A DNA stretch of 64,000 nucleotides, from contig CAMBPQ010000013.1 in NCBI GenBank assembly GCA_945869735.1, forward strand, positions 155 to 64,154, in the 5' to 3' direction. The notes under the pieces were generated by a model. The model saw only the letters and a list, made by a program, of their open reading frames with translations, had not been told where the DNA came from and made no database searches. This DNA comes from Planctomicrobium piriforme. Its GTDB lineage: Bacteria; Planctomycetota; Planctomycetia; Pirellulales; UBA1268. Position numbers and translations under genes: made by a program. Below, piece after piece: positions 17,006 through 62,636 of this stretch (positions are counted from its first letter, which is position 1; every line of letters starts with the position of its first letter).

Positions 17006-19348
17006 TCAACGCTCGGCGGACGGTAGGTCGAAGCGATCGAGATTCATGACCTTCGTCCAGGCCGCCACGAAGTCGGCCACGAATCGCTCCTTGCCCTCGA
17101 CGCTCGCGTAGACCTCGGTGATCGCCCGCAGCTGCGAGTTGGAACCGAAGACGAGATCGACGCGGCTGGCCGTCCACGTCGTCCCGCCCGTGCCGTGGCT
17201 TCGGCCCTCGAAGAAGTGCGGGCAGGCCGGCGACTGTTGCCACTTGGTATTTATGTCGAGCAGGTTCACGAAGAACTCGTTGGTGAGGGTTTCGCGATGC
17301 TTCGTGAACACGCCCACCTCCGCCAGCGGGCCGCCGCCCGTATTCGCGCCTAGCACACGCAGGCCCCCCACGAGCACGGTCATCTCCGGGGCCGTGAGCG
17401 TCAGCAGCTGCGCCCGGTTGACGAGCAGCTCCTCGGCGGGCCGGTCGATGTCGTGGGCGAGATGGTTGCGAAAGCCGTCCGACTTGGGCTCGAGCACCGC
17501 AAACGACTCGACGTCGGTCATCTCTTGCGTGGCGTCAGTGCGGCCCGGCATGAACGGCACGCGGATCTCATGGCCGGCCCGCTTCGCCGCCTCCTCGACG
17601 GCGGCAGAGCCGCCGAGCACGATCAAATCGGCGAGTGAGATCTTTTTTCCATCGGTGCGGCCGGTGTTGAACTCGCGGTGGATCTTTTCAAGCGCTCGGA
17701 GGCTCCGCGTGAGCCGGGCCGGATCATTGACCGCCCAGTCTTTCTGGGGCGCGAGGCGAATGCGGGCCCCGTTGGCACCGCCCCGCTTGTCGCTCCCACG
17801 AAATGTCGAGGCCGAGGCCCAGGCGGTCGTGACGAGATCGGCGATCGAGAGCTCCGACGCGAGCACGACCCGTTTGAGTTCGGCCACGTCCTTCGCGGTG
17901 ACCAGCGGGTGATCAACCGGCGGCACGGGATCCTGCCAGAGCTGCGGCGGCGCGACATCGGGCCCGAGGAGCCGTGACACCGGCCCCATGTCACGGTGCG
18001 TGAGCTTGTACCACGCCTTGGCAAACGCGGCCCGAAACTCCTCGGGATGGTCGTGGAACCGCTTGGAGATTTTTGCGTAGGCGGGATCGTCGCGCAGGGC
18101 GATGTCGGTCGTGAACATCATCGGCGCGTGCGACTTCGCAGGGTCGTGGGCGTCGGGCACGGTGCCCTTGGCGGCGGGATCCTTGGGCGTCCATTGCCGG
18201 GCGCCGGCCGGGCTCTTCGTCAGCTCCCACTCGTAGCCGAAGAGATGATCGAAGTAGTCGTCGGACCACTGCGTGGGCGTTGTCGTCCATGCGCCCTCGA
18301 GGCCGCTGGTGATCGTGTCGCCCGCGTTGCCCGTGCCGAACGAGTTCTTCCAGCCGAGGCCCTGCTCAGTGATCTCAGCACCCTCGGGCGGCGGCCCCAC
18401 GTGGTCGGCACTCGCGGCGCCGTGAGATTTTCCAAACGTGTGCCCGCCGGCGATCAGGGCGACCGTCTCCTCGTCGTTCATCGCCATCCGTCCAAACGTC
18501 TCGCGGATGTCGCGGGCCGCGGCACGCGGGTCGGGCTTGCCGTTGGGCCCCTCCGGATTGACGTAGATCAGCCCCATCTGCACCGCGGCCAGCGGATTCT
18601 CGAGCTGGCGGTCACCGGAATAACGCTTGTCGCCGAGCCACTCGGTCTCTGGCCCCCAAGAGATGTCTTCCTGCGGCTCCCAGATATCGGCGCGGCCTCC
18701 TCCGAAGCCAAACGTCTCGAAGCCCATCGACTCAAGAGCTATGTTGCCGGTGAGCATCATGAGGTCGGCCCACGAGATACGATTGCCATACTTCTGCTTG
18801 ATCGGCCAGAGGAGCCGCCGCGCCTTGTCGAGGTTGGTGTTGTCGGGCCAGCTGTTGAGCGGTGCGAATCGCTGCGCACCGTAGCCGGCGCCGCCGCGGC
18901 CGTCGGCGATTCGGTAGGTGCCAGCGCCATGCCAGGCCATCCGGATAAAGAACGGCCCGTAGTTGCCGTAGTCGGCCGGCCACCAGGGCTGCGAGTTCGT
19001 CATCAGCTCCTTGAGGTCGCGTTTCACCGCGGCGAGGTCGAGCTTCTGGAACTCGGCTGGATAGTCGAAGTCGGCGCCGAGCGGGCTCGAGGCCGGCGAG
19101 TTCTGATGGAGGATCTTCAGGTTCAGCTGGTCGGGCCACCAGTCGGCGTTCGACATCACCCCGGCGGCCGTGTTGCGGGCAGATGCCGGCGGCACGTCGT
19201 GCATCACTGGGCAGGTGCCGGCCGAGCCCTGCGGCAGGGCTGCCCCGGCGGAGGGCTTCTCGTCGGCACGACCGCGGCCGCTCATGACGCAGGCTGCCAC
19301 GATCACAGCAACCAGCGCCGCATTTCGGGAGAACACGTTCTTCTTCAT
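17006..19348 (-). CDS. katG: Catalase-peroxidase with N-terminal signal peptide (exported)
   Basis: [60 protein letters not shown]; ATG at 19348 after AGGAG; signal [28 protein letters not shown]. Confidence 0.97.
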
Positions 19349-19479
19349 GGCTTGGCTCCTTGAGATTTCGGTTGGCCGCAGACGCAGGTCGCCGGACGAG
19401 CTATTCTTCGGCATGGAAGCGGATTCAGCGGCTGCGGTCAGCGGCGAAAGATCAAACGTAGCACACACCAGGACTTGAC

Positions 19480-61600: not shown

Positions 61601-62636
61601 CCGAGTGGACGGGAGAGCGGTCGTTGGCATACACGACGTGGCAGCCAGTGCAGCCGCTCGAGCGATAGTCGCCGGGATGGTCATTCGTACCCAGGAAATT
61701 GAGCGTGGGGTCGAGGAGGCGGGTTTTGTTGAGGCTCACGAAGACCGGATCGGTGCGGTTCTCGGTGCCAAGACCACGAGCGCTCAAGCGGGTCCGCGGG
61801 CGGCCATTTTCCTCGAGCCGCTCGGGATTGCCGACCTCGGGGCGGAAGCGTCCGCCGCGTTCGAAGAACCGTAGCACGTTGCTCGGCTGCTGGCGTTCGA
61901 ACCGCGGCAGTGGATCGAGGTAGCGCATCACCGACTTGTAGTTGATCTCGTCCTCGGTCGGCGGCGGCACGGTCTGCAGGCGTTGGCCGATTCCCTCGTG
62001 ACTGTAGCTCTCGCCGTAGGCGGCCCGCTTGTTGGGGATCGAGCCGTTGTTGTAGAGCGCGGCGTTCCAGAGCATGCAGCCGTGCGTCATCATGCTTTTC
62101 TGGACCTGCAGCACGATCGAGGCATGACACCCACCGCAGCTTTCAGGGGCAGCGCGGAGGTCGCCTGGATTGACGAACCGGACGAACTCGGGCGATTCGT
62201 GGTTTAGCAGCGTGTATGACCGGACGGGATTCGCGGAACCGGGCCACGATTCGGGCTCCTTGGGATGCACGTGGGCTCCCTGCTTGGTCAGACAATCAGC
62301 GTTGCCGCCATGGCAGTCGGTGCATCCGAGCCGGACATTCTCACTGCGGTGCATGTCGCCGACGCCGATATGGCAGGTGACGCAACCGTGGCTCTTGCGG
62401 GCTGCTGCGGCGTCGGTCTGCCGCGAAAGATCTTCGCCGAGCAGTTCCGGGGACAAGGGCAGGGGGTTGGCAGGATCAACCGGTGGCAGCGGCCGGACTT
62501 CTTCGCTCGCGGCCAGGGGCGGGCGACCTGAGGCCACGGGCTCGTCAGCGAACACGACCGTTCCCAGGGCCACGGTCAGGCAGCCGAGCGTTCCGGCCAC
62601 GAACAGCCCCGACAACGTGGGCTGCAAACGAGCCAT
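58668..62636 (-). CDS. Large secreted decaheme cytochrome c with C-terminal LVIVD repeat (beta-propeller) region
   Basis: 10 CXXCH: CVTCH, CTDCH, CGGCH, CTGCH, CIVCH, CIDCH x2, CISCH, CFGCH, CTDCH; YAYVAAGQQGLVIVDVTNP, FAYVADGANGLRVV; signal peptide. Confidence 0.9.
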   Translation of the reverse strand: MARLQPTLSGLFVAGTLGCLTVALGTVVFADEPVASGRPPLAASEEVRPLPPVDPANPLPLSPELLGEDLSRQTDAAAARKSHGCVTCHIGVGDMHRSENVRLGCTDCHGGNADCLTKQGAHVHPKEPESWPGSANPVRSYTLLNHESPEFVRFVNPGDLRAAPESCGGCHASIVLQVQKSMMTHGCMLWNAALYNNGSIPNKRAAYGESYSHEGIGQRLQTVPPPTEDEINYKSVMRYLDPLPRFERQQPSNVLRFFERGGRFRPEVGNPERLEENGRPRTRLSARGLGTENRTDPVFVSLNKTRLLDPTLNFLGTNDHPGDYRSSGCTGCHVVYANDRSPVHSGPYAAFGNRGCSFSPDPTIPKGESGHPIAHQFAPGNGIPTSQCIVCHIHPGTNVMNSYIGYMWWDEETDSDLVYPQKQRYPTSEEVINSQFANPNESAVKNMLSDPEFLANLTDLNDRTKETQFADFHGHGWAYRAVLKHDRKGNLLDHKGDIVADGGNAAQRAAVKMPERIKEIYRGADRKTPAQIRIEEAMVAHERNGLPVHMLDIHMERGMHCIDCHFIQDMHGNTKLYGEVRAAIEITCIDCHGTTDRYATLRTSGPASDTSSPEGGRDLRTLRTPSGKRRFVVQGERVYQNSMVEENLTWEIKQTKATVDPQSEHYNVLSAFAKTVRRADDGAVEWGGSTRPEACAHRDNLMSCISCHSAWNPSCFGCHLPQKVNKKSPGLHYEGDVSRNYVAYNFQTLRDDVFMLARDGNATGNRIGPARSSCAIHVGSFNANRESIYAQQQTISAEGYSGIAFSTNVPHTVRGGPHSSVPRDLTAHRPGTHETKMCTDCHVSKQDDNNAIMAQLLMQGTNYTNFIGRYCWVGLGSGGLAGVVVTEQQEPQAVIGSSFHKIAFPDDFGKHLANQGVLQKSHHHATADAVSLALNPLKRREVLQVQMRGEYLYAACGADGLRVFDIAFIDDKAFSQRITTAPVSPLGQQFYVKTAYATGVASPSTTAPDPTRTHDPANFEGTVHAMYGYLYVSDLEEGLVMVGAGTLLDGNPLNNFLKRDVTFNPDGILKGARSITIAGTNAWICCNAGIVVVSIEDPTCPKIVSVIGSPNVIRPTSVEIQFRNAFVCDAEGLKTFDITDPAAAVPLATVPLATANKVYVARTYAYVAAGQQGLVIVDVTNPHAPFIDQCFDADGKMNDVRDVKLGITYVSEFAYVADGANGLRVVQLTGPETPGNVGFSPRPTPQLVASYPVTKGGMALSVSEGVDRDRAVDESGNQLSVFGRVGAKPLDLESQQRMYLNKGRLWKVSDNPFDLELYRPLR

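Follow-up and report, generated by a model that had tools for sequence, protein, structure and literature searches.

A conserved multihaem, Fe-S and cyclic nucleotide-domain gene cluster of freshwater planctomycetes as a putative electron route from NAD(P)H to the periplasm

What do the multihaem cytochromes, iron-sulfur proteins and cyclic nucleotide (cNMP)-binding domains encoded together in a freshwater planctomycete do for the cell? In the window, by which we mean the whole 64,000-nucleotide stretch of DNA that was analysed, a sequence-only reading had described a co-located gene set with 35 haem motifs, and every gene that it listed is present where, or near where, it was placed; the motif total also holds, as 33 CxxCH plus 2 CX4CH. 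The same reading had reported no molybdopterin, hydrogenase or Nuo membrane-arm gene, and a Pfam scan of the window's open reading frames (some plus-strand frames in 838-6000 excepted) found none of these families. We read the window as carrying a single copy of a multi-operon system that is conserved in freshwater Pirellulales, an account that we rate slightly above an even chance of being the best overall explanation. Judged from its genes, and with about the same modest preponderance of belief, the system would take electrons of NAD(P)H in the cytoplasm out to the periplasm, and probably as far as the cell surface, without a recognisable quinone step. Its gene content, cofactor motifs, conserved linkage and co-occurrence are observed or computed directly, and the cluster is widely conserved: the same system occurs in other Planctomycetota and in single genomes labeled Acidobacteria and Verrucomicrobiae.

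Which genes belong together was judged from 56 loci chosen by a strong match to memHis, the His-paired membrane protein of the window; many of the genes missing from these loci reflect contig ends. A decahaem cytochrome is present in 53 of the 56 and is the same-strand neighbour of memHis in 50, pentahaem paralogs likewise occur in 50, an Fe-S protein with internal cNMP-binding domains (the Fe-S/cNMP protein) in 40, a NuoE-NuoF fusion (NuoEF) in 35, and a decahaem cytochrome with LVIVD repeats in 29. Of 301 genomes from the order, 75 encode both memHis and the Fe-S/cNMP protein, 211 encode neither, and 15 carry one of the two (memHis in 5, the Fe-S/cNMP protein in 10). A distant relative from another family (G026) has memHis-decahaem-NuoEF-Fe-S/cNMP-pentahaem-pentahaem as six genes on one strand with small gaps, and the core genes are kept in the Acidobacteria-labeled (L043) and Verrucomicrobiae-labeled (L044) loci. 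These linkage counts overstate the support, because memHis served to select the loci and because genomes of relatives are not independent samples; moreover, the NuoEF/Fe-S half and the memHis half can separate, since at least seven of the loci for which the full 20 kb was fetched have neither NuoEF nor the Fe-S/cNMP gene within 10 kb of memHis. Gene order across many genera and three phyla supports grouping NuoEF, the Fe-S/cNMP protein, memHis, the anchored decahaem, three pentahaems and the LVIVD decahaem as one set. For these members the comparison supports the earlier idea of one system, whereas its KatG drops out and its glucose-6-phosphate dehydrogenase is only loosely linked. The polysaccharide genes at 46097-58610 are also left outside the cluster, as is the gene at 27487, which lacks a conserved place beside it.

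The input side is a run of three plus-strand genes. It opens with a GH63/MGH1-like glycoside hydrolase (31232..33979; MGH1-like_GH E 8.1e-24, Glyco_hydro_63 E 1.9e-9), a neighbour in 11/56 memHis loci covering several families, and continues after 31 nt with NuoEF (34011..35774) and after a further 4 nt with the 853-aa Fe-S/cNMP protein (35779..38340). NuoEF is a predicted NAD(P)H-oxidising flavoprotein with FMN, one 2Fe-2S and one 4Fe-4S cluster: its 2Fe-2S_thioredx, Complex1_51K and NADH_4Fe-4S domains each exceed the Pfam cut-off, and its sequence contains the motifs GMGGAGVP, CNADESEPGTFKDR and CGKCVPC. It scores under the NuoF equivalog cut-off (349.8 vs 558.65), and a second, separate NuoEF homolog of the same genome lies on contig C1. 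The Fe-S/cNMP protein begins with a HoxU/NuoG-N-terminal-like part (Fer2_4 and Fer4_Nqo3; a 2Fe-2S and two 4Fe-4S clusters), has tandem cNMP-binding domains in the middle (cNMP_binding matches in three stretches), and ends in a DmsB/FdnH-type four-cluster ferredoxin domain that matches FdnH (1kqf_B) at E 3.7e-12. Comparison of 28 orthologs shows little or no variation in any cluster cysteine or in the cassette FGEMxCLNxYPRSAT.

These proteins share the NuoE, NuoF and HoxU/NuoG-N-terminal cofactor motifs of HoxEFU and the complex I N-module but differ in the fusion of NuoE to NuoF, in the extension of the HoxU-like part by cNMP and FdnH-like domains, in scores under the equivalog cut-offs, and in having neither a hydrogenase link nor Nuo membrane subunits in the window. 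The HoxEFU make-up would suit a diaphorase for the Hox-type enzyme of this genome, with the cytochromes unrelated. Outside the window the genome does hold one molybdoenzyme and a two-gene NiFe hydrogenase, whose small and large subunits (C74:11677-13751) have no diaphorase gene alongside; these are enzymes of the kinds that the sequence-only reading had named as possible catalytic partners elsewhere. In a set of 301 genomes, however, the hydrogenase and the cluster are not associated (both hydrogenase and memHis in 24, with about 27 expected by chance; memHis only in 56, hydrogenase only in 77, neither in 144). The hydrogenase was found in 14 of 38 strong carriers and not in the other 24, and it lies off the cluster's contig in 5/5 genomes checked. 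A second version of the system, described below, lacks NuoEF and the HoxU-like part altogether. We regard the diaphorase explanation as largely refuted and very improbable.

A second, paralogous glucose-6-phosphate dehydrogenase with a C-terminal cNMP-binding domain (G6PD-cNMP; 19480..21351, plus strand) scores 540.7 bits with TIGR00871 zwf (cut-off 400.6) and E 4e-19 with cNMP_binding, and its phosphate-binding cassette is readable in the sequence; a plain G6PD paralog of the same genome is on contig C58. In two relatives (G286 and G217) G6PD-cNMP is contiguous with a barrel-unk-GlcG-GH63-NuoEF arrangement, in another (G002) it adjoins the Fe-S/cNMP gene, and in four genomes of the source family it is adjacent to the cluster or at most 20 kb away. 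It is on other contigs in two genomes, occurs in 6/20 family genomes without detected memHis, and is represented in the Verrucomicrobiae genome by a G6PD without the cNMP fusion. These placements suggest a peripheral companion, loosely linked to the cluster and only within the source family. NADH is the usual substrate of NuoF-type enzymes, and for that reason a feed of NuoEF by NADPH from G6PD is only putative.

The membrane step falls to memHis (41651..42661, minus strand; true start, TTG at 42661), a 336-aa protein of five predicted helices from a large unnamed family. Among 89 family representatives (32-49% identity), the invariant residues include exactly four histidines, His85, His99, His314 and His328, which form two i/i+14 pairs, and a loop of roughly 160 residues separates helices 4 and 5. 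With the five modelled helices oriented by the positive-inside rule, each pair would lie at matching membrane depth, and the loop probably faces the cytoplasm; memHis is a putative di-haem b transmembrane wire. The weak, sub-threshold matches of the family are to di-haem b families only (DUF4405, 41/89; Ferric_reduct, 17/89; Ni_hydr_CYTB, 11/89). Its structure model is moderate (pLDDT 71.6) and found no fold relative in the PDB; a sequence search likewise detected no relative, FdnI and NarI included.

FdnH is the subunit that passes electrons to a di-haem b protein, and, as in FdnH-FdnI and NarH-NarI, the four-cluster ferredoxin domain here is genetically paired with a small, putatively di-haem membrane protein. 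The differences are that no molybdopterin subunit or evident quinone role exists here, that memHis is unrelated in sequence to FdnI/NarI as far as detectable, and that the ferredoxin domain is predicted to be cytoplasmic and is fused to cNMP and HoxU-like modules. A complex prediction for memHis and residues 685-853 of the Fe-S/cNMP protein scored 0.60 (best control, 0.00), with runs sharing at least 66% of contacts and a partner pLDDT of at least 73. This is above a mark passed by 58/80 solved complexes and 2/110 mismatched pairs but within the band graded as weak support, as passing scores of 0.60 or lower came from just 7/80 solved complexes and from both passing mismatches.

On the outer face, the start of the membrane-anchored decahaem cytochrome c (39997..41646, minus strand; 10 CxxCH; Cytochrome_C7 E 9.1e-15; one transmembrane segment) lies 4 nt beyond the memHis stop codon. 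Three exported, c554-like pentahaem cytochromes accompany it: penta1 (38552..39982, minus strand) and penta2 (42898..44436, plus strand), each with 4 CxxCH and 1 CX4CH, and penta3 (44433..45983, plus strand), with 5 CxxCH. The presumed outermost component is a secreted decahaem (58668..62636, minus strand; signal peptide; 10 CxxCH) with LVIVD beta-propeller repeats (E 2.1e-14), whose gene directly adjoins penta3 in most relatives. Motif counts are kept in orthologs of penta1 (23/23), penta2 (30/32), penta3 (23/23), the decahaem (43/47) and the LVIVD decahaem (15/16).

The exit from the periplasm is less sharply defined. The protein at 22207..24330 (barrel22k; plus strand), called a beta-barrel in the earlier reading, has no match in Pfam or NCBIfam and a poor AlphaFold model (pLDDT 39.9), but a signal peptide, a C-terminal ...EMAF, about 19 long strands in the model and an Atlas neighbour cluster in the alginate-export porin family (Alginate_exp; score, 0.95) point to a barrel. 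Its gene directly adjoins that of the LVIVD decahaem in six loci (L044, L046, L047, L053, L065 and L070), one of them from Verrucomicrobiae, and barrel22k is a probable outer-membrane beta-barrel and partner of that cytochrome. The secreted GlcG/HbpS-like (DUF336) protein (29215..31158, minus strand, start uncertain; HbpS-like E 1.1e-10) lies beside the cluster in 8/56 loci and also in the Verrucomicrobiae genome G041. It had been described as a tandem protein and probably has two domain copies; a second start of the "VVDRSGQILG" type can be seen by eye, although Pfam and the PDB, where the matches are EfgA/GlcG, pick up only the C-terminal copy. Between barrel and GlcG lies unk24k (24335..26605, plus strand), a repeat protein with an N-terminal membrane anchor, no Pfam match and no known family; orthologs 57-61% identical hold the same position in G286 and G217, its conservation in that position is confined to the source family, and it is found outside the barrel-GlcG arrangement in 0/56 loci. 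Repeat paralogs of unk24k occur elsewhere in the genome.

A barrel gene adjoining a secreted decahaem, with periplasmic multihaem partners, also characterises MtrCAB, the Geobacter Pcc/Ext conduits and the porin-multihaem cytochrome clusters of Verrucomicrobia, whose carriers likewise come from lake water columns (PMC5615132). No component here, however, reaches any Mtr, Omc or Ext family cut-off, the surface cytochrome carries an LVIVD propeller, and the input is NAD(P)H through Fe-S and haem b, whereas those conduits draw on the quinol pool through CymA, ImcH or CbcL. The carriers of the present system are, going by record titles, lake plankton. Exact pieces of the contig occur in one RNA library, the sole expression data, which may contain DNA.

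In family f12 the system takes a second form. All 11 loci have the order FNR-type flavoprotein (FAD_binding_6, NAD_binding_1 and Fer2), tetrahaem, a protein with two cNMP domains and a four-cluster ferredoxin, short memHis, and a 679-aa multihaem protein; the flavoprotein stands in place of NuoEF, so that the downstream parts can be fed by either of two distinct NAD(P)H dehydrogenases. With the transmembrane electron transfer of the NOX, FRE and MsrQ-type FRD proteins the system would share a cytoplasmic NAD(P)H flavoprotein and, fed by it, two stacked b haems that are held by two His pairs on two helices and carry electrons across the membrane; the f12 version also has an FNR-type FAD/NAD module, and the memHis family gives weak matches to Ferric_reduct and DUF4405. 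That likeness, including the pairing of memHis with an FNR-type dehydrogenase as in NOX enzymes, would fit an outward flow ending on periplasmic oxygen or peroxide, that is, an NADPH-oxidase-like oxidase, peroxidase or ROS-handling device, and the lake-plankton habitat and the exported KatG (17006-19468, minus strand; Pfam peroxidase E 1.8e-67; N-terminal hydrophobic, signal-like segment) 12 nt from G6PD-cNMP are in keeping with it. KatG is nevertheless ruled out as a cluster member, occurring in 0/56 loci and being absent beside G6PD-cNMP in G286 and G217, so that the KatG-partnered ROS version offered earlier loses its basis. Nor do the cytochromes belong to a detected peroxidase or oxidase family, and the conserved outer-membrane barrel and secreted decahaem would be superfluous for a periplasmic reaction. 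We consider an oxygen- or peroxide-directed device unlikely. The system differs from the NOX, FRE and MsrQ-type proteins in the five predicted helices and large, probably cytoplasmic loop of memHis, which falls under all Pfam cut-offs, and in its dehydrogenase, in the window a separate multi-cluster Fe-S chain (NuoEF plus the 853-aa protein) with cNMP domains within it. On the acceptor side it has multihaem c cytochromes in place of O2, Fe3+ or MsrP.

A class III nucleotide cyclase gene adjoins the module in 8/11 f12 loci, and a cyclase homolog lies inside the fetched flank in 10/56 other loci; the source genome's own cyclases are elsewhere in the genome. Adjoining cyclases, cNMP domains of a kind typical of regulators with weak CRP-type matches, and a GlcG/HbpS family that includes redox and small-molecule sensors (PDB entries named EfgA and GlcG) might indicate that, rather than carrying bulk current, memHis and the Fe-S/cNMP protein mainly sense the redox state of the periplasm or of the cell's surroundings and integrate it with cNMP signalling. 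A sensor, though, would hardly need 35 haems, some nine Fe-S clusters and an NAD(P)H dehydrogenase with FMN or FAD, and no output domain (DNA-binding, kinase or GGDEF) was detected in the conserved members, which leaves this explanation quite improbable.

In the electron-export reading that we prefer, we infer docking, haem b binding, direction, acceptor and cNMP gating as follows. The FMN of NuoEF would oxidise NAD(P)H, and electrons would pass through the HoxU-like clusters to the FdnH-like four-cluster domain of the 853-aa protein, docked on the cytoplasmic face of memHis. They would cross the inner membrane over two b haems, with His85/His314 and His99/His328 as ligands, to the anchored decahaem as acceptor on the outer face; the three pentahaems would spread them in the periplasm, and the barrel and LVIVD decahaem, with the GlcG-like protein, would provide the exit at the outer membrane or surface. 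Lying between the two Fe-S modules, the tandem cNMP domains could let cAMP or cGMP open or close the wire. The Hmc/Tmc/Dsr-type complexes of sulfate reducers share the layout of cytoplasmic Fe-S protein, b-haem membrane subunit and periplasmic multihaem cytochromes; they belong to other subunit families, have no NAD(P)H flavoprotein or cNMP domain, and are thought to run inward.

Gene content alone does not fix direction, and both multihaem conduits and modules of the NuoEF type can in principle run either way. A donor outside the cell or in the periplasm, for example Fe(II) or reduced humics, might instead reduce NAD(P)+ through the cytochromes and memHis. Reduction of NAD(P)+ from such donors is, however, uphill and would bring negative charge into a negative cytoplasm, the conserved set has no coupling device (proton pump or bifurcating partner), and the frequent neighbours G6PD and GH63 are sugar-oxidising or sugar-releasing enzymes, that is, electron sources; an inward chain is, in our estimation, decidedly improbable.

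The sequence-only reading knew of no characterised system with this make-up, and we likewise found no published description of one in the literature. If electrons of NAD(P)H do leave the cytoplasm with no quinone involved, no energy would be conserved and the membrane potential would be drawn on. For the lineages that carry it, the likely use of this conserved yet undescribed gene cluster would be the dumping of reducing equivalents on an oxidant outside the cell or in the periplasm, for instance Fe(III), humic quinones or O2.

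Pfam and NCBIfam scans gave the gene order from 17 kb on in the window (C13:155-64154; GC content, ~66%), which comes from a genome of 3.17 Mb in 128 contigs that is 95% complete; related public records are titled as freshwater-lake Planctomycetia or Pirellulales MAGs. The region opens with KatG, which has a signal-like N-terminus (17006-19468, minus strand), and continues on the plus strand with a G6PD fused to a cNMP-binding domain (G6PD-cNMP; 19480-21351), barrel22k, which bears a signal, has no family assignment and terminates in ...EMAF (22207-24330), the anchored repeat protein unk24k (24335-26605) and mem27k (27487-29115), a multi-pass membrane protein without a family assignment that lies between unk24k and the GlcG/HbpS-like protein GlcG2 (29215-31158, minus strand). 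A GH63/MGH1-like hydrolase (31232-33979), a NuoE-NuoF fusion (NuoEF; 34011-35774) and FeScNMP (35779-38340) follow on the plus strand, the last an 853-aa protein in which HoxU/NuoG-N-terminal-like 2Fe-2S and 4Fe-4S domains, tandem cNMP domains and an FdnH/DmsB-like four-cluster domain are joined. A minus-strand run then begins with memHis, a membrane protein with paired histidines (42661-41651), and proceeds through a membrane-anchored decahaem cytochrome (41646-39997) to pentahaem 1 (39982-38552), while pentahaems 2 (42898-44436) and 3 (44433-45983) lie on the plus strand. Finally, ~12.5 kb of polysaccharide genes (46097-58610: amidohydrolase, GT2, capsule synthesis, AMP-binding/carrier protein, two pyruvyl transferases, and GT9) separate pentahaem 3 from a secreted decahaem with an LVIVD propeller (58668-62636, minus strand). 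The haem motifs total 33 CxxCH and 2 CX4CH. These scans bear out the inventory drawn up in the sequence-only reading, although the evidence that barrel22k is a barrel and that GlcG2 is a tandem protein is weak.

Intergenic gaps of 4 nt (NuoEF/FeScNMP and memHis/decahaem), 14 nt and 31 nt, together with one 4-nt overlap, indicate operons. An ORF at 21348-22106 on the minus strand was rejected as a gene on account of its GC3 (0.61, versus ~0.8 in its neighbors), and a search for tRNA genes as landmarks of insertion found none in the window, and hence none at the edges of the polysaccharide block at 46097-58610. Upstream of the region lie a long ORF of no known family (790-4152, minus strand), an aldose 1-epimerase (6405-7814), a rhomboid protease (7645-8670) and further polysaccharide genes (9875-16864).

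Full-length FeScNMP orthologs occur in only 4 of the 25 genomes of the genus (this one included) and in G026, a member of another family. In G023, the order is LVIVD decahaem, pentahaems 3 and 2, memHis-decahaem-pentahaem 1, FeScNMP-NuoEF, GH63 and GlcG2, with no intervening polysaccharide genes; in G024, it is barrel22k-GlcG2-GH63-NuoEF-FeScNMP-pentahaem 1, and in G002, G6PD-cNMP directly adjoins FeScNMP. At ~40% identity, G026 retains memHis, the decahaem (10 CxxCH), NuoEF, FeScNMP and two pentahaems (with 4 and 5 CxxCH) consecutively on one strand. A scan with the memHis alignment (one genome per species) recovered 27 loci, mostly from lake Pirellulales but including one labeled Acidobacteria and one labeled Verrucomicrobiae, and the gene order is the same in nearly all of them.

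By profile search, memHis is present in 80 of the 301 genomes of the order (56 of 161 genera); flanks of about ±10 kb were fetched for 40 of these matches. When the same 301 genomes are scored for both proteins, 75 have memHis together with an FeScNMP-type protein, 5 have memHis only, 10 have FeScNMP only and 211 have neither. We tabulated neighbors at 56 loci with a strong memHis match, and because these loci were picked via memHis and many are related to one another, the counts describe the loci and do not amount to a statistical test, with many absences attributable to short contigs: the decahaem is found at 53 loci (at 50 as the same-strand neighbor of memHis), a pentahaem paralog at 50, FeScNMP at 40, NuoEF at 35, the LVIVD decahaem at 29, GH63 at 11 and GlcG2 at 8, and G6PD-cNMP, KatG, unk24k, mem27k and the polysaccharide genes at none. 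At least seven loci for which the full 20 kb is available lack both NuoEF and FeScNMP within 10 kb of memHis, so the memHis half and the NuoEF/FeScNMP half are separable.

Chance co-location of the core genes was rejected on the basis of co-occurrence in the 301 genomes and linkage across the 56 loci, and a chance neighborhood is very unlikely because the arrangement is conserved down to 25 to 45% identity, across families and into two other phyla. We consider it probable that the core genes constitute one electron-transfer system. The cluster also appears in three public records titled “Candidatus Kuenenia stuttgartiensis” (L036, L037, and L038), whose proteins are 39 to 79% identical to those of the window and whose gene order is that of lake Pirellulales; this label looks doubtful.

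Comparison with relatives also separates bystanders from the core. In most of them, the LVIVD decahaem directly adjoins pentahaem 3, which identifies the polysaccharide block at 46097-58610 as an interruption of the cluster in this genome. In two other genera of the family (G286 and G217), the order is G6PD-cNMP, barrel22k, unk24k and GlcG2, then GH63, NuoEF and FeScNMP; KatG and mem27k are absent at this position, and we therefore regard both as bystanders. Taken as their longest ORFs, KatG and G6PD-cNMP point away from each other across 12 nt (17006-19480), a pairing kept in neither G286 nor G217. One weak, partial match to mem27k appears in L080; unk24k is internally repetitive and has several paralogs in this genome, on C11, C37, C56 and C62. 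The sequence-only reading had placed all of these redox proteins in a single chain leading from glucose-6-phosphate through NADPH, flavin and Fe-S clusters, haem b and periplasmic haems to the surface, with KatG as partner in an optional reactive-oxygen system. Linkage and co-occurrence favor a single conserved chain and its order, whereas the partnership with KatG falls away, given its absence from all 56 loci and from G286 and G217. The same architecture may alternatively serve a periplasmic oxidase or peroxidase, but this reading has lost KatG as support.

The position of G6PD-cNMP relative to the electron-transfer system is looser. Its G6PD portion scores above the cut-off of the zwf equivalog TIGR00871 (540.7 versus 400.6 bits), and the protein extends to the cNMP domain in 46 of 121 family genomes, with three more copies truncated at contig ends. 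Every searched genome with a match to the fusion also keeps a plain G6PD (~41 to 44% identity), which in this genome is on C58. Among 28 family genomes of listed memHis status, the fusion is present in 7 of the 8 with memHis and in 6 of the 20 without; it is enriched in memHis carriers and not exclusive to them. In G042 and G044, the fusion is on contigs other than that of the cluster; no copy was found in G043, and the Verrucomicrobiae genome has an unfused version.

FeScNMP is annotated publicly only as “cyclic nucleotide-binding domain-containing protein” or [quoted passage not shown] PDB matches fall in three segments: residues 250 to 330 pair with Fe-S domains from the N-termini of NuoG, [FeFe] hydrogenases and NAD-linked formate dehydrogenases, residues 443 to 613 with the tandem cNMP domains of PKA regulatory subunits, and residues 696 to 851 with four-cluster ferredoxins of the FdnH, AorA and HycB types. 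Across 28 orthologs, the cluster cysteines are all conserved, as is the first cNMP cassette; this phosphate-binding cassette of domain A, FGEMSCLNAYPRSAT, contains the diagnostic Gly-Glu and Arg-Ser/Thr-Ala. On these sequence features, the protein qualifies as a carrier of CAP/PKA-R-type cNMP-binding domains, with a cyclic nucleotide as the predicted ligand. The system may accordingly be read as having a sensing role, against which stands the absence of an output domain. As for electron input, NuoEF combines an FMN/NADH domain, SLBB and a C-terminal 4Fe-4S with a NuoE-type 2Fe-2S partner, as expected of NuoF/HoxF proteins (Complex1_51K, 137 bits; NADH_4Fe-4S, 70.8; 2Fe-2S_thioredx, 69.2; all above cut-offs), and the motifs are legible in its sequence. 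It falls below the cut-off of the complex I NuoF equivalog TIGR01959 (349.8 versus 558.65 bits), and the HoxU score is likewise short (92.9 bits versus a cut-off of 333). A separate NuoEF homolog resides on C1 of this genome.

A diaphorase of Hox type could point to a hydrogenase partner, and a catalytic partner located elsewhere would have counted against the chain. This genome does encode NiFe hydrogenase small and large subunits, on C74 (L085; 11677-13751), with no diaphorase or maturation gene adjoining; an opposite-strand amidohydrolase lies upstream, and the contig ends ~350 nt downstream. Yet the hydrogenase is not associated with memHis in the 301 genomes, where 24 have both, 56 memHis only, 77 hydrogenase only and 144 neither, about the chance expectation; and among five carriers of the cluster, a NiFe family match is found in three, in none of them on the contig of the cluster. 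A hydrogenase partner was rejected on both counts. This genome has one molybdoenzyme, on C105 beside an aldehyde dehydrogenase.

The membrane component, memHis, belongs to no Pfam or NCBIfam family. Its true start is the TTG at 42661, as set by an in-frame stop in G023 and by the alignment with G026. A profile search of 1.84 billion cluster representatives returned 3616 relatives at E ≤ 0.001 and 645 at E ≤ 1e-30 (representatives of clusters at 50% identity), and in an alignment of 89 relatives that are 32 to 49% identical to the query, G51, H85, G89, H99, G124, Q131, W310, H314 and H328 are invariant and H308 is nearly so. The AlphaFold model (27 sequences; pLDDT, 71.6) has five long helices, with a partly disordered loop of ~160 residues joining helices 4 and 5, and places the pairs His85/His99 and His314/His328 (i, i+14) on helices 3 and 5. 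Ferric reductase/NOX domains have two bis-His haem b sites formed by paired histidines ~13 residues apart on two transmembrane helices, and the His pattern of memHis fits such a pair of putative sites. Applying the positive-inside rule would put the N-terminus and the long loop in the cytoplasm, H85 and H314 close to the inner face and H99 and H328 close to the outer one; in this predicted placement, the histidines would have the geometry of two stacked bis-His b haems.

Sub-threshold Pfam matches among the 89 relatives of memHis are to DUF4405 (41), Ferric_reduct (17; best E value, 1.4e-4) and Ni_hydr_CYTB (11), which we take to be di-haem b families of one clan, and a neighboring cluster in the protein Atlas is auto-named “putative Ferric reductase like transmembrane component” (score, 0.95). 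The memHis of the window itself has no match to the Ferric_reduct model of Pfam, and hence none above cut-off. Foldseek comparison of the model with the PDB found no fold relative (best E value, 4.5), and the profile had no meaningful match to PDB sequences. Nine relatives (P0189, P0228, P0235, P0248, P0249, P0259, P0261, P0268, and P0272) are 550 to 864 aa long, with large inserts separating two conserved halves; Pfam detects no family in these inserts. When ten long or atypical relatives were searched against Pfam for fused domains, nine had no family and one had a weak Ferric_reduct match. What emerges is a large membrane-protein family, currently without a name, that is now defined and has a genomic context.

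Complex prediction for memHis with residues 685 to 853 of FeScNMP scored 0.60 (runs of 0.63, 0.56, and 0.60), in the class of weak support, against 0.00 for the best control; contacts agreed between runs to at least 66%, and partner pLDDT was at least 73. In calibration, 58 of 80 solved complexes reached the mark, against 2 of 110 mismatched pairs; only 7 of the 80 did so at ≤0.60, as did both passing mismatches. Together, the prediction and the genomic pairing modestly raise the odds that the two proteins dock.

On the outer side, the proteins resemble a porin-cytochrome conduit in arrangement and lack family-level homology to MtrA, MtrB, MtrC or Omc, with all matches to MtrAB/MtrC-like families below cut-off (Mtrc-MtrF_II-IV, 28.3/30 bits; decahem_SO1788, 16.9/209; ExtM, 58.3/800). 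No PDB sequence matches the LVIVD decahaem, the anchored decahaem or pentahaem 2. Pentahaems 1 and 2 have CX4CH in place of CxxCH as their first haem motif (in 23 of 23 and 30 of 32 orthologs, respectively), and each pentahaem ends in ~200 residues of no known family. The model of barrel22k is too poor for a structure search (~19 strands; pLDDT, 39.9); signs that point to a barrel are a C-terminal Phe and an Atlas neighbor of the Alginate_exp family. It occurs at 6 of the 56 loci, each time adjoining the LVIVD decahaem, such that a putative barrel gene sits beside a multihaem cytochrome gene, as in porin-cytochrome systems, at these six loci, and ~34 kb away in the window. In the Verrucomicrobiae genome G041, the genes for the LVIVD decahaem, barrel22k and a GlcG2-like protein sit side by side, and by this context the three appear to form an exit module. 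Electrons flowing inward would be energetically unfavorable without a coupling device, and none is among the conserved genes.

The strongest argument that the input to the chain is NAD(P)H comes from the weaker memHis matches, all of which fall in one other family, f12, and include several complete genomes. All 11 of its loci (L074 to L084; e.g., L074:3774-12498) share the order FNR-type flavoprotein, tetrahaem, cNMP-ferredoxin protein, short memHis and 679-aa multihaem cytochrome. The flavoprotein has FAD_binding_6, NAD_binding_1 and 2Fe-2S Fer2 domains, the tetrahaem is c554-like, and the 574-aa cNMP-ferredoxin protein has two cNMP domains and a four-cluster ferredoxin without the HoxU-like part. 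None of the 56 NuoEF-type loci has the FNR-type gene. The same set of cNMP-ferredoxin, putative di-haem b protein and multihaem cytochromes is thus joined to either of two NAD(P)H dehydrogenases that are unrelated to each other. This arrangement also suggests that the cNMP-ferredoxin protein and memHis are the conserved center of the system. Beside the f12 block, a divergent class III nucleotide cyclase gene is found at 8 of the 11 loci, and cyclase homologs lie inside the fetched flank at 10 of the 56 NuoEF-type loci.

Among six RNA runs, X1, a freshwater metatranscriptome, is the only one that contains part of the window (share, 0.11). Exact or near-exact contig pieces number at least eight in X1 and few in X4 and X2, with none in X6. 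Those in X1 are short contigs that cover GlcG2, GH63, the NuoEF/FeScNMP junction, FeScNMP, the decahaem, memHis and the pentahaem 2/pentahaem 3 junction; they show presence in an RNA library, which does not by itself prove transcription, and the uncovered parts are uninformative.

Taken in full, the outward, cNMP-gated chain is a model that we favor by a small margin over its being wrong. Rather more tentatively, and at somewhat short of an even chance, the cluster may encode an unrecognized trans-envelope wire for respiration or redox balancing, which would bypass quinones in passing electrons from NAD(P)H through Fe-S clusters, di-haem b and multihaems to a barrel/propeller exit, be switched by cNMP inside an electron-transfer subunit, and accept NuoEF/HoxU-like or FNR-like inputs interchangeably. 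The system would work most like a NOX/ferric-reductase enzyme stretched into a multiprotein chain, and on the features tested it lies outside the NOX, Mtr/Pcc, Hox and Fdn families. Two features we rate as unusual for trans-envelope conduits: NAD(P)H entry with no evident quinone step and a cyclic-nucleotide receptor within the Fe-S subunit. We found no description of the cluster in a literature search that covered abstracts and main-text passages, and we are aware of no respiratory chain described so far whose Fe-S subunit contains a cyclic-nucleotide receptor.

Known routes of extracellular electron transfer start from the quinol pool, and a start at NAD(P)H with a NOX-like pair of b haems across the inner membrane would depart from that design. 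FeScNMP-family members of ~50% identity occur in cultured planctomycetes, named at source as Roseiconus nitratireducens and Novipirellula caenicola, and the FNR-type version is found in several complete genomes, which makes the hypothesis testable. If the gate works, it would tie second-messenger signaling to electron flow directly and posttranslationally. Such a route would let fermentative or sugar-degrading plankton dump electrons on iron, humic substances or oxygen, and, if the model is true, abundant lake planctomycetes would have a trait that has been overlooked, extracellular electron transfer gated by a second messenger.
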